In this document: positions 1 through 46,688 of the stretch, one piece after another
How the letters are laid out: each line of letters opens with the position of its first letter
How positions within the stretch are numbered: the first letter of the stretch is position 1
Origin: Thermodesulfobacteriota bacterium
Lineage (GTDB): Bacteria > Desulfobacterota > Thermodesulfobacteria > Thermodesulfobacteriales > Thermodesulfatatoraceae
NCBI GenBank assembly: GCA_013153725.1
Contig: JAADDY010000068.1
Location: 1 to 47,664 of the forward strand
Length of the DNA: 47,664 bases
Direction of reading: 5' to 3'
Notes under the pieces: model-generated
What the model saw: only the letters and a program-made list of their open reading frames with translations
What the model was told of the DNA's origin: nothing
Database searches by the model: none
Position numbers and translations under genes: made by a program

Positions 1-927
1 TTCTTTGAGGCATGTTATGTTCTTTTTATTTTTTCGTTTTTTCTCTTTTTGAAGAATTTCCTTCAGGAAAGGAAAGAGCTGTTTGTTTACTTTTTGTTTC
101 TTTTTTTGTTAACACCCGCAGGTATTCCTCATTTTGTTCATGATATTGGCCGTTTTGATATAATCAATTACAGTCTTTTATTTTTGGCGTTGGCTATTTA
201 TAGACCCGAAAATCGTTATTTTAATTTTCTCTCTCTTGTTCTGATTCTCTTAACCTATTTTATTCATGAGGCCTCCTTCTTTTATGCTTTTCCTTCTTTC
301 CTTCTTTTTTTGTTGCTAAACGAAAAAAAGAAAAAAGCTATGCTTTTTACAGGTGTAAGTTTAATATGTTTTCTTTTTATCATGGCTTTTGGCCAATATT
401 CATCGTTGGATGCCCAAACGTATTTCAGTTTAAAAGTAGCTCCTACCTGGGGTGATAAAACTACCAATAGTCATCTTGTGCTCTTTAGGTCTGTAACAGA
501 TAATTTAAAGTATGTTTTTTGTTTTCTTTCCAAATACCGGTCTTTTAGTCCGTTGGAGATATTTTTATATACACTATATTTTGGTATAATTTTGGCTTTT
601 CATACCCTCTTTTCGTCGATTTTTTGTCCCAAATTTTCTTGGCTTCGTCTGCTTCTTTTTTCTCTTCCCTTCTGGATCTTGCCGTTGTTTTTAGTGGGTA
701 TTGATTATTCCCGTTGGGTGAGCTTGTTCTTTGTGAATTCAGTAATAGCAGCCGTTTTCTTTGTGAAATATTTTAGCGATAAACATTTCCAGTTAGCCTC
801 AGCAACTCCTCTGTTGAAGATATATTATTTTGTGATGATAATTTTTATTCTGTTTGGCCCCCTGGGTGTAATTTTCCCCTTTCCTTTGTTTTTCAATTAT
901 CTCAACAAAGCCCTGGGTAAAGGCTAA
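1..927 (+). CDS. Polytopic membrane protein, hypothetical, 5'-truncated by the window edge
   Basis: Frame is open from base 1 (FFEACYVLFIFSFFLFLKNF...) to TAA at 925-927. Many hydrophobic segments with an HE motif (FIHEASFFY), loosely resembling GT-C-type membrane glycosyltransferases. Very AT-rich. Confidence 0.75.
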   Translation, partial: FFEACYVLFIFSFFLFLKNFLQERKELFVYFLFLFLLTPAGIPHFVHDIGRFDIINYSLLFLALAIYRPENRYFNFLSLVLILLTYFIHEASFFYAFPSFLLFLLLNEKKKKAMLFTGVSLICFLFIMAFGQYSSLDAQTYFSLKVAPTWGDKTTNSHLVLFRSVTDNLKYVFCFLSKYRSFSPLEIFLYTLYFGIILAFHTLFSSIFCPKFSWLRLLLFSLPFWILPLFLVGIDYSRWVSLFFVNSVIAAVFFVKYFSDKHFQLASATPLLKIYYFVMIIFILFGPLGVIFPFPLFFNYLNKALGKG

Positions 928-6736: not shown

Positions 6737-6762
6737 AGCGCCTCTCATTTTCGAGAGGCGCC
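6737..6762 (-). terminator. Terminator hairpin after the octaheme cytochrome / cytochrome b operon
   Basis: GCGCCTCTC-attttc-GAGAGGCGC stem a few nt past the cytochrome b stop; AT-rich tail on the minus strand. Confidence 0.65.
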
Positions 6763-6766
6763 GTTT

Positions 6767-7366
6767 CTATCGCAATTCCACTTCTTCCCAGCCCAGAATC
6801 ATGCCCCGCAGGTGGGAGTACCAGGGCTTTCCGGTGGTGGCGAGATAGACGTGGATGATCAAGAAGAAAAGGAAGGCAAAGGCCCCGGCGGTGTGGTAAT
6901 AAGCGACCTTCCTGAAGGATGCGCTGATCCCGAGGGCAGGCCACCACTGATAGGAGAGGAGCAGGAAGGCCGTTACGAACTGGAGAGGGAAGAGCACCAG
7001 CTTCAGAAAGAGATAGGCCAGCCGCTGGAGGGGGTTCAGCTTCTGATCGGGCCGTTTCTCAAAGGGGTGCGGTTCTCCGCGAAAGATGCCCACCAGATAG
7101 TAGTAACAAATTTGGGGGATCTTTTCCTTGACCGGCCAGTAATGCCGCCACGCCCCGGTGGTGAGATGCCAGAAGATGGCAAAGGCCGTAAGAATCACCA
7201 GGGCCATCCCGGCATATACGTGCCAGAGATAGGCCTTTTCGTAGCCAAAGATTTCGAGGCTGCCGTGGATCTCGAAACCCGTAAGGAGGAGAAAGATGAT
7301 GAGAAAGGCCTGGGTCCAGTGCCAGAGTCTTTCAAACCGGGTGTAGAGATAGAGCTTTTGCTTCAT
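6767..7366 (-). CDS. Cytochrome b/b6-domain membrane subunit (PhsC / Ni-hydrogenase cyt b-like), partner of the octaheme cytochrome
   Basis: FERLWHWTQA, LTGFEIHG, KLNPLQRLAY, YYHTAGA and IIHVYLATTG heme-b His motifs; SD AAGGAGG. Confidence 0.9.
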   Translation of the reverse strand: MKQKLYLYTRFERLWHWTQAFLIIFLLLTGFEIHGSLEIFGYEKAYLWHVYAGMALVILTAFAIFWHLTTGAWRHYWPVKEKIPQICYYYLVGIFRGEPHPFEKRPDQKLNPLQRLAYLFLKLVLFPLQFVTAFLLLSYQWWPALGISASFRKVAYYHTAGAFAFLFFLIIHVYLATTGKPWYSHLRGMILGWEEVELR

Positions 7367-7378
7367 TTGAGGACCTCC

Positions 7379-9010
7379 TTATTTCCGTTTCAGGGCGATG
7401 ATGATCCGGGCCACACCGTGAATCGAGACAAAGAGCAAGGCGATGAGGCAGAGGGTCTGACCGATCTTGTCCAGCTCCACGTGACGATCCCTTCCCGGAA
7501 GATAGACCCCCGAAATACTGGCCAGCCTTCCTCCCTGGCGAACATGACAGGCGGCACACTTGAGAGCGTCTTCCCTGGGGGCTACCATGTGAGAGAGGGC
7601 GTGGTAATAGACCGTCTCCACAAATTCAACTTTTCCGCTGAAGGGCAGCCCGGCGGCCTTCATGCCGGCTGCCGCGGCTTTCTTCCAGTCAAACTCCGCC
7701 CAGAAAGCTCCGCTTCCCTTGGGGCCGAAAAGCTTCGGGACGATCATGAGCTTGTTCACCGGGTCGTAGGGTTGTTTGCCAAAATGGGGTTTGAAGGGGA
7801 AGATCCGCGAATCGGGATCTTCCGGGCTCCCGTTGGGTTTGATCAGGACGATGGGGTCCTTGCCTGCCTCGACTTTTTCGCCAGGTAGCAGATAAGAATA
7901 CGTGCCGTTGTACCAGCGATAGACCGGTACCAGGTTCTTGCCCCATTTGAGGGTTCCCTTCTTGGTGTGATATTCCGGCCTGCCCAACGGACCCATCTTC
8001 ACGATGGGTTTTCCGTCCTTGAAGCGCCCGGCCGTGGACCAGTCCCAGTAGGTGTTGGTGGGAAGCCCTCTGGCATAGAGGGGGATGTGGCAGGTCTGGC
8101 AGGCCACACGGTCAGTATGGTCGTTGAGCTTCACAAGCCGCCAGTCAAAGAGCTTCTTTTCCGGGCGATGGGGCCTGGTGCCGTGGCAGGCCTCGCACTT
8201 TACCAGGTGCCCTTCGTATCTGGGGAGAGCAAGCTCCCGTTTCCCGGGCGCTGGGGTGTCGTAGTGTCGGCCGTCGATCTCGTGGGCGGTGGTGGTGTGG
8301 CAGGTGGCACAGGTGAAATTGAGCCCCTTGGCGTCCATGTGAGCATCTATCTTCTTGGGCGGGGCGATGAGGGTAGAGTCTATATCTCCACGTTTGACAC
8401 CGTCCCCTCCTCCGCTGAAGAAATGACACTTTCCGCAGGATTCCCGTGTGCTGTACCCCACGTGCTGGGCCACGTAGGCCAGATTGACGGCCTTGAAGAG
8501 TTTTTTGCCGGCAAATACCTTGTCTTTCAGCGGAGGATAGCCGCAATCGGTGGGGAATTTTTTATAGGTTCCGGTCGTGTCGTGGCAGACCAGGCAGTCG
8601 ATCTTTTCCACGGCGAAGTCGAAACTTTTGTCCTTCCATCCGTAACCGGCGTGGCAGCTGGTGCACCTGCACCAGTTGGAGGTTACCGCCACTCAGTAGT
8701 TGTTGATGACATGGGCCTTACCCAGAAGGCGGCCGTCTTTTCCCTTCCAGGTCCAGGTGTAATGCAGGGTCTTTTTGAACTGCTCTCCGGCCTTGTTGTG
8801 GCACTTGAGACAGGCCCTGGTGACTTCCTCCGGGGTTTTGAAGTCTTTTTTGAGTTCCTCGTACTTGGAGTGGTCCGCTGTAGACGCTGGCGGGGCAAAA
8901 TATCTGGGGCTGGCAAGCTGGATACCCGCATTTTGCCCCCGCACAAAGGCGGAATAACCGAAACCAGGTGCCAACAGAAGAATGATCACTCCCACCCACC
9001 AAACCCTCAT
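7379..9010 (-). CDS. Octaheme c-type cytochrome, tetrathionate reductase (OTR) family, probable selenoprotein (Sec at TGA 8693-8695)
   Basis: ORFs 8693..9016 and 7379..8692 share a frame and are separated only by one TGA. Joined, they give a signal peptide, eight CXXCH motifs (CLKCH upstream; CTSCH, CLVCH, CGKCH, CATCH, CEACH, CQTCH, CAACH downstream) and a C-terminal TM helix. Context GKAHVINNY-U-VAVTSNWCRCTSCHAGYGW. GGAGG lies 6 nt before ATG 9010. Confidence 0.88.
8651..8692 (-). promoter_or_regulatory. Candidate bacterial SECIS element
   Basis: Directly after UGA: GUGGCGG-uaaccuccaa-CUGGUGC-AGGU-GCACCAG-CUGCCAC. Lower 7-bp stem (one G-U), upper perfect 7-bp stem, AGGU loop beginning after 24 nt downstream of UGA. 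Confidence 0.8.
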
Positions 9011-9078
9011 CGGCAACCTCCGTTAATTGAGAAATAGTTGCTGTTTCTACAAAAAGAATGGGGCTTGGAAGGAAAAAG

Positions 9079-16712: not shown

Positions 16713-18401
16713 ATGGACGCCAGAGATCTTCTACAAAGAGTCTTGCGCCTGGAGGGCAAGGGATACGGGGCCTACAAGGACCTAAAGGGCCGCTATCGTT
16801 TCGAGGATTTCGAACTCATCATCGACAAGGTTCAGGCGGATCCCTTTGCTCCCCCGAGCCTTTTTCGATTGAGAATTTTTAGCGATCGGGCGCAGCTCCC
16901 CGCCTGGGCCTATGCCAACCCCTCACGTCAGATAGGGCTGGAGAACTTCCTGGCCTGGGTGGCGGAGAAGGAGGCCAGGCGCCTCACCAAACGATTGGGA
17001 ACCGGAAAGGGCGGCCTCATTTTGGTGCACGGGCCGGGGCAGGAGATGTTCCGGCGCACGGCCGTAGAGGTTGGCCCGGAAGGAGAAATAGAACTCCGGT
17101 TCTTTGTAGGGCTTCCCGCAGCAGGGCGCCGGATACTGGCCAAGGAAGCCCGAAAACTTCTTCTCGAGACCCTTCCTCTCCTCGCGAAGGCCTTGTTTTA
17201 CGAAAATCTTCCCCGAGATCTCCTGAAAAGATTTGTGGAAACAAACGAAGATGCCGATTTTTTAAGAACCAGACTCAAGGAACTGGGCCTGATCGCCTTC
17301 GTGGCTGATGGAAGCATTCTCCCCAGGGCTTCGGGGGTGGATCCTCGCCCTGCCCGGGGAGCAGTTCCCTTCAAGGCCCCGGAGAGCCTGGCGGTGGAGG
17401 TGGAACTGCCTCACCGGGGGCGGGTTCGCGGGCTTGGTATCCGCCCGGGGGTTACCCTCATCGTGGGGGGAGGCTTCCACGGGAAGTCGACCCTTTTGAG
17501 GGCGCTCGAGTTGGGGGTTTATAATCATGTTCCAGACGATGGAAGGGAGCTGGTGGTTACCGAACCTTCCGCGGTAAAAATTCGTGCTGAAGATGGGAGA
17601 CAGATAACCGGAGTAAATATCTCTCCTTTCATCGGGCGTCTTCCTTTTGGCAAGGATACGACCTCTTTTTCTACTCCCTGTGCTTCGGGATCCACCAGCC
17701 AGGCGGCCAATATCATGGAAGCCCTGGAAATGGGAGCAAGGGTCTTTCTCATCGACGAGGACACCTCTGCCACCAACTTTATGATTCGGGACGCTCGGAT
17801 GCAGGCTTTGATAAGCAAGGAAAAGGAGCCCATTATCCCTTACCTGGATCGGGTGCGGGAGCTTTATGAGAAGTTCGGTGTCTCAAGCATTTTGGTCATC
17901 GGTGGCTCCGGGGACTATCTGGAAGTAGCCGACACGGTAATAGCCATGGATCATTATCTTCCCGTCGACGTTACCCAAAGGGCCCGTGAGGTGGTAAAGG
18001 AGTTTCCCCTTGCCCGCAAAAGAGAGGTCGAAGGTCCTTTTTCCCTGCCTGCTCCGCGGAGGTTTGCCCCGCAAAGCTTTCCGAGAGATCGCAAAGGTCC
18101 GCGGGCCAAGGCCCTGGACCGCATCCTCTGGGGAAGGGAGCAGATCGACCTGGGGGCCTTGGAACAACTGGTGGACCGAGACCAGACCAACGCCATGGCT
18201 TACGCCCTCGAAATTCTGGCGGAAAGGCTCTCCCGGGGAGACAACCTCCCGGAGGCCGTTTCGAAGATCTGCGAAGAGGTCGAAAGAGAGGGGCTTCACA
18301 GGCTTTCGCCCCTGCCTCGAGGAGATCTGGCGGCGTTTCGCCCCTTTGAACTGGCAGGGGCCCTTAACCGGTTGAGGTCCTTGAAGATACGTCATGACTA
18401 G
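16713..18401 (+). CDS. ABC-class P-loop ATPase (ABC_ATPase / MRB1590-like family)
   Basis: GYGAYKDL, QADPFAPPS, Walker A GGGFHGKST, ASGSTSQAAN, Walker B LIDEDTSATNFM. Confidence 0.9.
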   Translation: MDARDLLQRVLRLEGKGYGAYKDLKGRYRFEDFELIIDKVQADPFAPPSLFRLRIFSDRAQLPAWAYANPSRQIGLENFLAWVAEKEARRLTKRLGTGKGGLILVHGPGQEMFRRTAVEVGPEGEIELRFFVGLPAAGRRILAKEARKLLLETLPLLAKALFYENLPRDLLKRFVETNEDADFLRTRLKELGLIAFVADGSILPRASGVDPRPARGAVPFKAPESLAVEVELPHRGRVRGLGIRPGVTLIVGGGFHGKSTLLRALELGVYNHVPDDGRELVVTEPSAVKIRAEDGRQITGVNISPFIGRLPFGKDTTSFSTPCASGSTSQAANIMEALEMGARVFLIDEDTSATNFMIRDARMQALISKEKEPIIPYLDRVRELYEKFGVSSILVIGGSGDYLEVADTVIAMDHYLPVDVTQRAREVVKEFPLARKREVEGPFSLPAPRRFAPQSFPRDRKGPRAKALDRILWGREQIDLGALEQLVDRDQTNAMAYALEILAERLSRGDNLPEAVSKICEEVEREGLHRLSPLPRGDLAAFRPFELAGALNRLRSLKIRHD

Positions 18402-29276: not shown

Positions 29277-30164
29277 TTAATCGGATCGTCGACAAAAATC
29301 CACAAAAATTTGGGCCACGGGAGACAAAATGTGATGCCTGGGCGTTATGAGATAAAAGTACCTCTCGATTTCGAAAGGAAGAGAGAGTTTCAGGACAGAA
29401 CCTCTCTCTAAGTCCTCTTCCACGGCGATCTCTGAGACAAAAGCTGCTCCAAGCCCGGCCTTTACACCCTGTTTTACGGCCTCCGTAGAGCCGAGCTCCG
29501 CCACGATGTGGCACTCCTCCGGGGAAAGACCTTCTTCCCGGAGCTTTTCCTGTACCACCAGCCAGGTTCCCGACCCTTCTTCCCGGACCAGAAGCGGAAT
29601 CTCAACAAGATCCCGGAGGGAGAGGGTACAGGGCTCTTTGAAGAGCCTGGGGGAGGCGATGAGGACGATCTTGTCTTCCCAGAGAGGCTCGAAATCGAGC
29701 TCTCTTTCGGGAATCTTGGCGCCTACCACCCCCAGATCAAGTTCCCCCAGGGCGACCTGGCGCGCGATTTCCTGGGTGTCGGCAACCTTGAGGGTGATCT
29801 TGATGGCTGGATATTCTCTTTTGAAGGAACCCAGGAGCCCTGGCAAGATGTACTGCCCCGGGATGGTGCTCCCTCCCAGAAAAAGCACCCCCTGCCCTCC
29901 CTGGGCAAAGAGGCGCATTTCGCGCTCGAGTTCTTCGGAGAGCTTGAGCAAACGCTTGGCGTAGCGGTAAAGGAGCTGGCCAGCCCTGGTGGGCCGCACC
30001 TCCCTCGTGTGGCGGTCAAAAAGGGGGACCTGGAAATAATCCTCGAGACTCTTGATGTGGCCGGAGACCGTGGGCTGAGAAAGATGGCATTTCTGGGCGG
30101 CGCGGGAAAAACTCTCCTCCTCTATGACCGCCACGAAGACGGCGAGCTTCCGCAGATCAAGCAT
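29277..30164 (-). CDS. LysR-family regulator, resembling the selenium-metabolism-associated subfamily
   Basis: SFSRAA...LSQPTVSGHIKSLE HTH; GGSTIPGQYILP, REEGSGT, ELGSTEAVKQGV. Start at ATG 30164 overlaps the upstream stop. Confidence 0.9.
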   Translation of the reverse strand: MLDLRKLAVFVAVIEEESFSRAAQKCHLSQPTVSGHIKSLEDYFQVPLFDRHTREVRPTRAGQLLYRYAKRLLKLSEELEREMRLFAQGGQGVLFLGGSTIPGQYILPGLLGSFKREYPAIKITLKVADTQEIARQVALGELDLGVVGAKIPERELDFEPLWEDKIVLIASPRLFKEPCTLSLRDLVEIPLLVREEGSGTWLVVQEKLREEGLSPEECHIVAELGSTEAVKQGVKAGLGAAFVSEIAVEEDLERGSVLKLSLPFEIERYFYLITPRHHILSPVAQIFVDFCRRSD

Positions 30165-30534
30165 TTCCCGTCTCAAAGGTCCCCAGTACAGCCTCTCGCA
30201 CCCGCGGGGGAAGGATCTTGGCCCCGATCTCAAGGATCTTTTTGATCACCGGGACCACGTCCTCATCTCCTTCCCAGTAGGCCCGCAACACTTCTTCATC
30301 CGTATGATAGAGCAGCCGCAAAAGGGCCAGGGCCACCAGATAGAGGTCATCCACCATCCCGAAGAAAGGAATCATGTCCGGAACGAAGTCCACCGGGTTC
30401 AAGAGATAGGCGATGGCAGCCGCAAGAATGGTCTTGTCCTTGAGGGGGACCCGTTTGTCCTTCAATAGGCCAAAGAGAAGCTTCAAAAACCTGGGGACCA
30501 TGCCTATGTAGCGTTTCATCTCTACCAGATTCAA
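30157..30534 (-). CDS. YkvA / DUF1232 family membrane protein
   Basis: DKRVPLKDK...AIAYLLNPVDFVPDMIPFFGMVDD; TTG start with AGGAGG 6 nt upstream. Confidence 0.9.
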   Translation of the reverse strand: MNLVEMKRYIGMVPRFLKLLFGLLKDKRVPLKDKTILAAAIAYLLNPVDFVPDMIPFFGMVDDLYLVALALLRLLYHTDEEVLRAYWEGDEDVVPVIKKILEIGAKILPPRVREAVLGTFETGNA

Positions 30535-36249: not shown

Positions 36250-37371
36250 TCAAAAGATCTTGTTCCCCGGGCGGCATACGGGTACATATTTAAACCAGCG
36301 GTATCGAAAAACCCCGACACTTCCGGGAATCAGCCCGTAGTGGTCGTCTGTAGATAGAAAGTAAAGTCCCGTCAAACCTTTGACAAGCCCCGCCTTTTCA
36401 AGCCCTTTGAGCCAGCGGCGCCTGTTTCGTTGCAAACCTTCCCGCAGAAAAAGGAGAGCATCGGTATAGGCGGCAAAAGCGGGGTCTCGCAGGACCTCGG
36501 TTTCCTTGCGCCATCTCTCGTAGAACCTGCGAATCTTTGGAGGGAAAGGACCTCGGCCGGCCAGGAAGGCGGCACCCACAAAGGGCCGACCGTAGAGACC
36601 GGCGTGATCCCTCAGGAAGGCCTCTTTTGCCACGAAATGTGGAAAATAGACCGGAAGGCCAAAGTTTTGTGCGGCGAGACTTTCTGCCACCCGGGCGGCG
36701 GTCTCGGGAGGAGCCCAGCAGATTACGGCTTCACAACCGAGGAAGGCTTCCACGTGGTAGGAGATGTTGGTGTCGTGGACTCCAAAATAGCGTTTACCCT
36801 CGATCTGAAGGCCATATTCCAGAGCGTAGGAGAGAAGCCACTTTTCCCCTTCTCTTCCAACGGCATCCTGGGTGAGGAGGAGACCGATCTTTTTGATCTT
36901 GCCCTTTCTGAGGCAGGAATAGAGGGCCTTGACCGCAGCCCTTGAAGAAAGACCTGTACGAAAGTAGGGACCAAGGGGTTTGCCTATTTCCTTCACCGGA
37001 TGAAATTCGCCGGAAGTGATGATGGCAGGTATGGCCAGAAGTCGGGCTTCTTTCAGCAGTTCCGGGACACAAGAGGGATTGAGGGGCCCTATGAGGACAT
37101 CGACTTCGTCCCAGTAGGCCTGATCCACGATTTTTTGCAGACGCCCGCACTTCCCTTCGGAATCGTAAAACACCAGGTTTATGGAAGGTGTGAAGCGAAA
37201 CTTTACTTCCTCGAGCCAGTCCTTGAGGGCCTGCCCCTGAAAGGCGTCTCTTCCGGAAAGAGGAAGGACAACCCCGGCCTTCAGCCCGGCCCAGGCCAGG
37301 GTCATTCTGCACAGGAGAACTACAAGGACACCGAAAAAGACGACTTTTTTAGGATTTTTTAAGTTTAGCAA
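36250..37371 (-). CDS. Periplasmic binding protein, LIV/PBP1 type
   Basis: Signal peptide then LKAGVVLPLSG, VDVLIGP, KIGLL, VKGLTGLY...DDHYGL. No adjacent permease. Confidence 0.8.
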   Translation of the reverse strand: MLNLKNPKKVVFFGVLVVLLCRMTLAWAGLKAGVVLPLSGRDAFQGQALKDWLEEVKFRFTPSINLVFYDSEGKCGRLQKIVDQAYWDEVDVLIGPLNPSCVPELLKEARLLAIPAIITSGEFHPVKEIGKPLGPYFRTGLSSRAAVKALYSCLRKGKIKKIGLLLTQDAVGREGEKWLLSYALEYGLQIEGKRYFGVHDTNISYHVEAFLGCEAVICWAPPETAARVAESLAAQNFGLPVYFPHFVAKEAFLRDHAGLYGRPFVGAAFLAGRGPFPPKIRRFYERWRKETEVLRDPAFAAYTDALLFLREGLQRNRRRWLKGLEKAGLVKGLTGLYFLSTDDHYGLIPGSVGVFRYRWFKYVPVCRPGNKIF

Positions 37372-45402: not shown

Positions 45403-45927
45403 ATGGAGCTGCTACTCGGTTTTCTCACCGGTCTCATCTGGGGTTACATCTTTCAACGGGCCCGGATCTTGCGCTTCGAAAAACACATTGGCCTTCTCAC
45501 CCTGAAGGACTTTGACATTCTCAAGTTTCTCCTCACCGGGGTCATCGTGGGGAGCCTGGGAGTCAATCTTCTGGCCCAATTCGGGCTGGTTACCTACGCC
45601 GTGAAGCCCACTTACGTGCTCGCTAACCTCCTCGGCGGCATCATCTATGGTCTGGGCTGGGCCCTTCTGGGCTACTGCCCCGGGACCACCGGCGGCGCCT
45701 TGGCCGAGGGGGCCTTCGACGGGTTCTTCGGTATCCTGGGGGGCCTCTTCGGGGCCATTGTCTTTGCCCACACCTACGACTTCTGGAAGGCAAAGGTCCT
45801 GACCGTCGGAGCCCTGGGGAAGGTCACCATTCCGTCTTTGCTGGGGGTCTCTCCGGCACTTGCGGGTATCGTCTTTAGCCTCATGCTCCTTGGCTTTTGC
45901 CTCTTTCTGGAGAAAAAGGGCCTCTGA
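45403..45927 (+). CDS. YeeE/YedE family, second half-type protein
   Basis: FQRA, LGGIIYGLGWALLGYCPGT; SD AGGAGG. Confidence 0.9.
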   Translation: MELLLGFLTGLIWGYIFQRARILRFEKHIGLLTLKDFDILKFLLTGVIVGSLGVNLLAQFGLVTYAVKPTYVLANLLGGIIYGLGWALLGYCPGTTGGALAEGAFDGFFGILGGLFGAIVFAHTYDFWKAKVLTVGALGKVTIPSLLGVSPALAGIVFSLMLLGFCLFLEKKGL

Positions 45928-46688
45928 TGCGAAGCTTTCCCCTCATTGAAAAAGAAGCCCTGGCCCCGGGGTTCTTTCGTTTCCGCCTGCGCGGAAGCCT
46001 GGGGGGCAGGCCGGGCCAGTTCGTCATGGTAAAGGCCTGGCCCGGGCTTGATCCTCTGCTTGCAAGGCCACTTTCCATCCACGACCAGGACGAAGACTCC
46101 TTCCGGTTCCTCTTTCAGGTAAGAGGGCGGGGCACCGCCATCCTCGCCCGCCAGGAGGTGGGAGACGAAATCCTGGTGCTCGGCCCTCTGGGCCAAGGTT
46201 TTGAGACGGGCTCCGAAGGCCCGGCACTTCTGGTGGCGGGAGGCATCGGGATAGCCCCCTTTCTCTTTTTGGCCAGGGAGCTTCGGGCGCGGGGGAGGGA
46301 GGTCTATCTCTTCTACGGGGCCCGGACGGCAGCCGAACTCCTGCTCCTTGAAGAGTTCGAGTCTCTGGGGGTAAGGCTCCATCTCGCCACGGAAGATGGA
46401 AGCGCCGGGGTGAAGGGCTTCGTCAGCGAGCCCCTGGTTTCTTTCTTGAAGGAGTCGCCCGAAGGAACCCTTTACGCCTGCGGCCCCACACCAATGCTGC
46501 AGGCCGTAAGCAGGATAGCGCGGGAATTTGGGCTGCGGGCCTACGTTTCGCTCGAAGCCCGGATGGCCTGTGGCCTCGGGATGTGCCTTGGTTGTACGGT
46601 TCCCCGGGCAGAGGGAGGCTTCCTCCACGTCTGCACCGAGGGGCCCGTGGTCCCCGCGGAGAGGGTCTTCAGAGAAGCTCCTCCTTGA
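45927..46688 (+). CDS. pyrK: Dihydroorotate dehydrogenase electron transfer subunit
   Basis: [47 protein letters not shown]...VCTEGPV; TGATG overlap with the upstream gene. Confidence 0.92.

Follow-up and report, generated by a model that had tools for sequence, protein, structure and literature searches.

An octaheme cytochrome c gene with one in-frame TGA

The window, by which we mean the whole stretch of 47,664 nucleotides analysed here (contig JAADDY010000068.1 of the Thermodesulfobacteriota assembly GCA_013153725.1), carries on its minus strand a gene for an octaheme cytochrome c of the octaheme tetrathionate reductase (OTR) family. The reading frame begins with an ATG at 9010-9008, crosses a TGA at 8695-8693 (codon 106), which very likely encodes selenocysteine (Sec), and ends with a TAA at 7381-7379; a cytochrome b gene follows. 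The principal features, with residues matched to those of the Shewanella oneidensis OTR structure 1SP3, are these:

7379..9010, minus strand: octaheme cytochrome c gene of the OTR family, 543 aa with UGA read as Sec
9017..9021, minus strand: ribosome-binding site GGAGG, 6 nt 5' of the ATG
8948..9010, minus strand: likely export signal peptide, about residues 1-21, recognised by eye and from hydropathy
8717..8719, minus strand: Lys98 (Lys56 of 1SP3), by homology the probable axial ligand of catalytic heme 2
8693..8695, minus strand: in-frame TGA, codon 106, putative selenocysteine (Cys64 of 1SP3), from the sequence, the alignment and the homologous loci
8651..8665, minus strand: heme 2 motif C116-T-S-C119-H120, the catalytic heme by homology
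8390..8392, minus strand: Arg207, beside the invariant Lys206, from the locus alignment

Standard open reading frame (ORF) calling breaks the gene into two same-frame pieces, 8693..9016 (107 aa) and 7379..8692 (437 aa, with a GTG start). An initial annotation, made from the sequence, had proposed that a single TGA splits one frame for a 543-aa octaheme protein, and reading through the TGA yields just such a product, with CXXCH motifs at residues 67, 116, 139, 192, 234, 272, 304 and 485, one before the TGA and seven after it. The context given there likewise agrees letter for letter with the sequence, GKAHVINNY*VAVTSNWCRCTSCH, where the asterisk is the TGA. That annotation had recognised the split Sec gene without giving its strand (minus) and had missed the hairpin behind the TGA, the cytochrome b partner and the Cys114/Cys156 pair, all described below. 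The plus-strand reading contains an internal TAG and no CXXCH motif.

Membership in the OTR family is clear, with a score of 567.4 bits against the TIGR04315 profile (cut-off 375) and coverage of the full profile, positions 1-440. The only solved relative found by sequence is Shewanella OTR (1SP3, E 1.4e-108), and a Foldseek comparison of the predicted fold, which has a predicted local distance difference test score (pLDDT) of 85.5, returns the same structure at E 1.7e-46, with a root-mean-square deviation of 2.3 Å, a template modelling score of 0.88 (by target length) and 41% identity. In the pairwise alignment, along which the residue numbers of 1SP3 were counted by hand, K98 matches K56, N103 matches N61, codon 106 matches C64, D203 matches D150 and K206 matches K153, with C116-C119-H120 aligned to C74-C77-H78. 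The TGA thus falls on the OTR catalytic-site cysteine, as the initial annotation had proposed. We take C64, N61, D150 and K153 to line the active site of OTR. The available part of a recent preprint (10.1101/2023.04.20.537704) lists the second heme motif, the Lys ligand and a cysteine, given without residue number, among the conserved features of the catalytic site.

Homologs were gathered from 61 related genomes, 80 GTDB loci, 401 genomes of the phylum and 16 additional regions, which, after removal of five duplicates and one off-target row, leaves 136 distinct loci that span the site. At the codon-106 column, TGA occurs in 44 of these and TGC or TGT in the other 92, an alternation that bears out the proposed placement of Sec at a conserved OTR cysteine. 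The TGA loci come from many families, and none has a further stop within the match. In the phylum sample, 29 of the 68 OTR matches above cut-off have one TGA, always in the same column, and the Sec form is common, being found in 27 of the 61 sampled genomes with such a match. Among loci with a named phylum, TGA is confined to the Thermodesulfobacteriota, with one extra locus titled only 'delta proteobacterium'; OTR loci from Pseudomonadota, Bacteroidota, Chlorobiota and elsewhere have Cys at this column. The Lys98 column is Lys in 135 of 135 loci. Position 207 is His in 126 of 135, and Arg is found there only in the clade of nine loci to which the window belongs.

Probable recoding of the TGA and the history of Cys/Sec exchange

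Immediately past the UGA lies a hairpin that we regard as the upper part of a bacterial selenocysteine insertion sequence (SECIS), and it overlaps one of two cysteines peculiar to this form of the protein:

8658..8675, minus strand: candidate SECIS upper hairpin, design I, CUGGUGC-AGGU-GCACCAG, encoding N112-W113-C114-R115-C116-T117-S118
8669..8671, minus strand: Cys114 (Pro72 in 1SP3), its codon within the hairpin's 5' arm
8543..8545, minus strand: Cys156 (Ala115 in 1SP3), always found with Cys114 and its candidate disulfide partner

The hairpin has a 7-bp stem and a 4-nt loop, AGGU, that begins 24 nt past the UGA, and the 48-nt segment folds at -22.1 kcal/mol. The bacterial consensus, as given in the accessible part of a 2026 review (PMC13188914), calls for a loop of 3-9 nt, a stem of 4-16 bp, a G in the first two loop places, a distance of 16-37 nt from the UGA and a minimum free energy of -7.5 or lower, and the hairpin of the window falls within all of these limits. 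The case for a SECIS is one of conservation across loci, not of this single hairpin. All 44 Sec loci carry one of two hairpin designs. Design I occurs in 29 loci, with the stem complete in 28, and design II (GCAACGA-GGC-UCGUUGC) in 15, with the stem complete in all 15; among the 92 Cys loci, a complete design I stem occurs once (L133) and a complete design II stem never. Codon choice within the hairpins is equally rigid. Of the 29 design I genes, 27 use AGG for Arg115, compared with a 20% share of AGG at their other Arg codons, and design II reads AAC GAG GCT CGT TGC in 15 of 15 loci, where GAG, GCT and CGT, each invariant, make up 42%, 16% and 11% of their synonymous choices elsewhere in those genes. 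In two loci (L153 and L159) a C-to-U and a G-to-A change face each other at the base of the stem. At position 114, 57 of the 92 Cys loci have Pro; the 44 Sec loci never do, having Cys in 29 cases and Ala in 15. Because Pro114 is never kept where the hairpin overlaps the residues ahead of heme 2, the RNA signal appears to constrain the protein sequence, so that residues close to a heme site would be dictated by an RNA element; our literature search for SECIS overlap returned no papers.

The genome holds selA (644 bits), selB (384) and selD (383), all above cut-off, and its selD has an in-frame TGA of its own. Several observations nevertheless weigh against recoding. Taken singly, the hairpin of the window is at chance level (z -0.75 to -1.74 against shuffles), and a loose hairpin rule fires genome-wide after 75 of 2762 TGA, 54 of 1520 TAA and 30 of 1208 TAG, so that neither folding energy nor the loose rule can serve as proof of a SECIS. 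No selC was found in the 81%-complete assembly, where the best Rfam match is a tRNA-Ser(UGA) at 48.9 bits; the sel genes named as a check in the initial annotation were accordingly found except for this one. Rfam scoring of 150 of the 323 tRNA candidates gives ordinary tRNAs only, and neither BLASTN nor 14-letter words taken from the selC of relatives retrieve anything tRNA-like from the genome; ARAGORN, run at a lowered threshold for tRNA-Sec, was swamped by spurious calls. Lastly, selA, present in 32 of the 33 other TGA genomes (the exception has selB and selC), is also present in 34 of 35 Cys-OTR genomes and is useless in this phylum for telling Sec from Cys forms. As selA is nearly universal in Cys-OTR genomes too, the machinery permits Sec without dictating it. 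On the other side, selC was found in nine of nine TGA-bearing relatives tested (74-83 bits, with the anticodon seen in five), and the assembly that yields no selC also yields no tRNAs for Asn, Asp, Cys, His and Phe.

Could the TGA be a true stop, either in a pseudogene or between two independent proteins, or else a mistake of the assembly? The missing selC would fit, as would the fact that databases hold the 3' part as a protein in its own right. We consider this hardly credible: 44 loci share a single TGA in the same column, each with a frozen hairpin and otherwise free of stops within the match, and the same assembly also lacks five ordinary tRNA types; a split would, moreover, leave the Lys ligand and signal peptide on one piece and heme 2 on the other. 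An assembly error for TGC or TGT, raised in the initial annotation, finds no support in the contigs of public runs, which agree with TGA. Among the matches listed for four public sequencing runs, there is no alternative letter at 8693-8695. A contig from one run (X1, depth 104) covers the TGA with 39 letters on its short side and has no differences across 8654-8820, an agreement that is not independent, because X1 is possibly the source sample. The gene is therefore best described as very likely one intact gene in which UGA, at the position of the catalytic-site Cys, encodes Sec, as judged from sequence conservation. The risk of mis-annotation pointed out earlier is borne out by the databases, where 15 of the 120 homologs listed are fragments with seven hemes, starting right behind the UGA; NCBI WP_197460471.1 is among them. 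Sec OTRs are thus often annotated without signal peptide or catalytic Lys and are easily missed in proteomic or metabolic work on sulfate reducers and sulfur disproportionators.

Quick LG+G4 trees, built without residues 106-118 from 135 rows and then from 58 of those rows, scatter the Sec forms, with seven Cys/Sec changes on the 58-row tree. A single origin of Sec (27 Sec rows as one clade) is rejected by the approximately unbiased (AU) test at p 0.006 and design I as one clade at AU p 0.02, p values that are indicative, as the groups were chosen with the first tree known. One Sec form, L067, is 92-93% identical to five Cys forms. Its hairpin is the same design II hairpin that occurs in Sec forms only 67-68% identical to it, a likeness that could have come about by convergence or by recombination over a short stretch. 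With a Sec form thus placed among Cys forms 92% identical to it, we read Sec as a faster stand-in for Cys in the same reaction, and L067 with its Cys sisters forms a natural Sec/Cys pair that makes the role of the residue directly testable. In the opposite direction, L133 has Cys106, keeps the stem as well as Cys114 and Cys156, has lost the G loop and is nested among Sec forms, so that its sequence likely records a Sec-to-Cys reversion. Three further Cys106 forms (P0017, P0022 and P0069) retain Cys114 and Cys156; P0017 and L133 may be one gene. Paralogs within a genome can differ in the same respect: G289 has three OTRs (L123, L153 and L161) that comprise both SECIS designs and a Cys form, and G260 has two (L157 and L159) with one design each. 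A longer Sec form of 13 hemes and 675-720 aa (L154-L157) uses design II, lacks the membrane tail and cytochrome b described below, and in L154 and L155 has an NrfD gene directly upstream.

Cys156 is found in all 29 design I loci and in none of the 15 design II loci. Over 255 rows, made up of loci and database proteins that partly overlap, Cys114 and Cys156 are both present in 48, both absent in 200 and never found singly, with seven rows gapped, and corrected mutual information places the pair 6th among 91,418. A tree test of the coupling has only two independent events, both of which agree (2/2 pairs, p 0.5). The two residues most likely form a disulfide beside heme 2, in which the Cys introduced by the hairpin's 5' arm would find its partner. 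They may also act as a redox relay with Sec106, though not as a general device, because design II has neither cysteine. Cys114 as an obligatory resolving cysteine is ruled out by the Ala in 15 of 44 Sec loci.

A probable cytochrome b partner and the proposed function

The C-terminal end of the protein and the gene behind it add the following features:

7385..7480, minus strand: C-terminal membrane helix, residues 511-542, with His531 and Arg535 invariant in 97 aligned proteins
6767..7366, minus strand: cytochrome b gene, 199 aa, PF01292, HyaC/PhsC-like, 12 nt past the OTR stop and with its own GGAGG
6738..6761, no strand assigned: GC-rich 9-pair hairpin just past the cytochrome b stop, a possible end of the two-gene unit

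The last of these is weak, having been called for the plus strand in a scan that gave five sites against 3.2 in shuffles; a promoter scan gave one site against 0.9 expected by chance. The helix agrees with the membrane anchor predicted in the initial annotation. The cytochrome b scores 90 bits against PF01292, with His16, His49, His158 and His172 invariant in 80 aligned homologs. Its best NCBIfam model is the thiosulfate reductase subunit PhsC (107 bits, cut-off 204), and the HyaC model gives 40 bits against 121.5, both below cut-off; among solved structures the nearest is HyaC, the cytochrome b of hydrogenase-1 (E 1.5e-4). A cytochrome b lies adjacent in 91 of the 95 loci whose OTR ends in the HxxxR tail, and in none of the 41 with untailed OTRs (six of them at a locus edge), in counts that include related, non-independent loci. 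Complex prediction for the tail with the cytochrome b scores 0.81 against 0.02 for the best control, at a mark reached by 116 of 157 solved complexes and 2 of 215 mismatched pairs; the runs have at least 71% of contacts in common and give the partner a pLDDT of at least 73. The model supports binding of the C-terminal helix to the cytochrome b, with a score that may reflect likeness to the hydrogenase-cytochrome b complex 4GD3. His531 need not be a heme b ligand, given the four invariant His, and the model places it near residue 174 of the cytochrome b. Cytochromes b of the PhsC/HyaC/FdnI family form electrogenic loops, and a loop of this kind would suit a low-potential substrate. The heme potentials of OTR are described, in the available part of 10.1101/2023.04.20.537704, as similar in range to the -100 to -450 mV of MmcA.

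Following the mechanism put forward for MccSep, an unrelated selenoprotein, we propose that OTR and cytochrome b together form a quinone-coupled periplasmic S-S reductase with Sec106 as the nucleophile, and give this reading a probability of about 0.55. Insertion of Sec106 by SelB at the hairpin would be its nearly certain first step. Quite probably, the protein is then exported and loaded with eight hemes c, and its C-terminal helix keeps it docked on the cytochrome b, through which electrons would pass from quinone pool to heme chain or back. In the last step, which we favour with reserve, the Sec106 selenolate would attack the sulfane sulfur of tetrathionate, polysulfide or a carried persulfide beside the Lys-ligated heme 2, and the heme chain would reduce the resulting Se-S adduct. 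That Sec was selected repeatedly at one residue points to a nucleophilic or redox part for this residue, and such chemistry speaks for sulfur rather than nitrite.

In the 34 Sec-OTR genomes, single queries against what are draft genomes match NapA-like genes in 9, dsrA in 19 and MccSep in 12; NrfA is matched in 2, and NarG in 1, as a broken piece. Four observations count against an S-S reductase: 15 of the 34 genomes have none of the five, so that no tested pathway explains the distribution of Sec-OTR; this genome already has two Sec-containing MccSep genes for polysulfide and, like Thermosulfurimonas dismutans, combines a NapA-like gene with no NrfA match; no sulfur-transfer gene lies beside the operon in the window; and among 48 chosen neighbour ORFs of Sec loci the only ones that point to sulfur are one DsrE, one rhodanese-domain flavoprotein and two NrfD.

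The same Sec protein and partner might instead reduce nitrite or hydroxylamine at heme 2, in ammonification or nitrite detoxification, with Sec as a proton donor or second-sphere residue. Shewanella OTR does reduce both in vitro, as cited in the accessible parts of PMC4911364 and PMC4484225, and Otr has been proposed for the nitrite step in NrfA-less T. dismutans (PMC5276818 and PMC4911364, as far as available), a gene content repeated in this genome. A strict NapA family search gave 0 of 34; because it missed a NapA-like gene that a laxer search recovered in four of five genomes, the search was redone with the genome's own protein, and it is this query that remains unmatched in 25 of the 34, with an intact NarG in none. 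Six of seven close relatives without an OTR match keep the NapA-like gene. These counts, which bear on ammonification rather than on detoxification of outside nitrite and may miss divergent nitrate reductases, weaken a dedicated role in nitrate ammonification and explain nothing positively. As the repeated Cys/Sec exchange also points to thiolate chemistry, we regard a nitrite-reducing role as unlikely.

A quinone-coupled S-S reductase could also be imagined to run in reverse, oxidising a low-potential periplasmic donor such as sulfide or persulfide, reducing menaquinone through the cytochrome b and building proton-motive force in the manner of hydrogenase or formate dehydrogenase loops, conceivably as the oxidative step of sulfur disproportionation. 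The cytochrome b family of HyaC, the closest solved relative of the partner, forms donor-side redox loops, and the nearest named relatives of the locus include the disproportionator T. dismutans (71%, L069). PhsC, the partner's best NCBIfam match though below cut-off, serves a reductase; dsrA is not matched in 15 of the 34 Sec-OTR genomes, and the main text of a 2026 proteomic study of a disproportionator (PMC13490349, as far as accessible) does not mention Otr. We therefore view the oxidative direction with considerable doubt.

A detoxifying reductase for oxyanions of selenium, tellurium or other metalloids, under an ArsR-family repressor, is suggested by an ArsR-family gene with one invariant Cys directly upstream of OTR in 9 of 29 design I loci, and by the fact that MccSep accepts selenite as a second substrate (PMC13510729, available part). 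This we think quite improbable. The ArsR gene was not found in the 81%-complete genome at E 1e-15, a second conserved Cys is absent from the ArsR alignment, and ArsR-family proteins also sense persulfides, so that such a regulator is compatible with S-S reduction as well. The ArsR proteins themselves form a tight clade (L017, L046, L129, L130, L136, L141, L144, L146 and L148) with the invariant Cys in the first helix, and their genes often overlap the OTR start.

At its most far-reaching, the S-S reductase reading would make these proteins a second, unrelated class of multiheme selenoenzyme, in which Sec106 and the lineage-specific Cys114-Cys156 pair together form a redox relay beside the Lys-ligated heme, and proton-motive force, harnessed by the PhsC-like cytochrome b, drives low-potential S-S cleavage, the native job of the OTR family; Cys and Sec would have been switched at least seven times, with two SECIS designs laid over the heme motif, one of which brought in the new Cys pair. 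We offer this extended version tentatively and think it improbable as a whole.

Other features and comparison with known systems

Elsewhere in the window, a LysR regulator at 29277-30233 (minus strand) matches NF040786, 'selenium metabolism-associated', at 298.7 bits against a cut-off of 250. Four ORFs have no NCBIfam match at E 0.001: 16713-18401 (plus strand, 562 aa), 36250-37371 (minus strand, 373 aa), 45774-46628 (minus strand, 284 aa) and 49-927 (plus strand, 292 aa), the last without a Pfam match either. The two MccSep/ExtKL genes of this genome (G000) lie on contigs C92 (3891-5198) and C12 (17642-18805), each with one in-frame TGA and a related hairpin; the MccSep copy of another genome, G002, shows two TGA (L170). 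Other likely Sec codons with GG-loop hairpins occur on contigs C5, C19 (two places), C88, C104 and C106 of G000 and include SelD and several Cys-x-x-stop or GG-stop contexts; an ARV*HAP site is presumably formate-dehydrogenase-like, judging by its motif.

The initial annotation had left open whether a Sec subfamily of OTR was already described. TIGR04315 is tabulated, in the accessible part of the 2026 review (PMC13188914), as a GenBank-annotated selenoprotein ('GA', WP_331457571.1) with neither primary reference nor motif. By that entry, the protein belongs to the same family and has one Sec. Our literature searches, with most subscription papers outside their reach, found no study of a Sec OTR and no paper naming OTR Cys64, and the available parts of PMC10376724, PMC4484225 and PMC13490349 (main text and one supplementary file) hold no expression data on OTR. 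The gene thus very likely encodes a selenoprotein, one more member of a kind already tabulated yet unstudied in the literature found. The two SECIS designs, the scattered origins of Sec, the Cys114/Cys156 pair and the coupling of tail and cytochrome b were not found in print, except for the cytochrome b link in T. dismutans. In that species, TDIS_1881/1882/1883 (L069) is 71% identical and has the same TGA, hairpin and gene pair. The Otr-cytochrome b link is noted in the available part of PMC4911364, and the word 'seleno' does not occur in the main text of PMC4911364 or PMC5276818. As far as these two papers are accessible, they give different, adjacent locus tags for Otr (1882 and 1881), a difference that would fit a split annotation.

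MccSep/ExtKL of Geobacter sulfurreducens (NF040886) is likewise a periplasmic multiheme cytochrome c with one Sec beside an unusually ligated heme. According to the accessible part of PMC13510729, it is a pentaheme tetramer with a His/Cys heme that reduces polysulfide, with Sec proposed as nucleophile, and is inactive on tetrathionate or nitrite. The window protein has no NF040886 match, gives E 0.014 by BLASTP against the genome's own MccSep copy and has eight heme motifs, not five; by sequence it shares no homology with MccSep past the heme motifs, is not a MccSep member and would at most work like one.

The system closest in fold is Shewanella OTR (SO4144, 1SP3), whose native function is described as cryptic in the available part of 10.1101/2023.04.20.537704 and which interacts with the soluble shuttle STC (PMC4484225, as far as accessible). 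The two proteins share eight CXXCH motifs and the fold, and the K56/N61/C64/D150/K153 columns correspond to K98/N103/U106/D203/K206 of the window protein. Compared with Shewanella OTR, the latter has Sec for Cys64, extra cysteines at 114 and 156 and Arg for His154, and it adds a C-terminal membrane helix and a dedicated cytochrome b.

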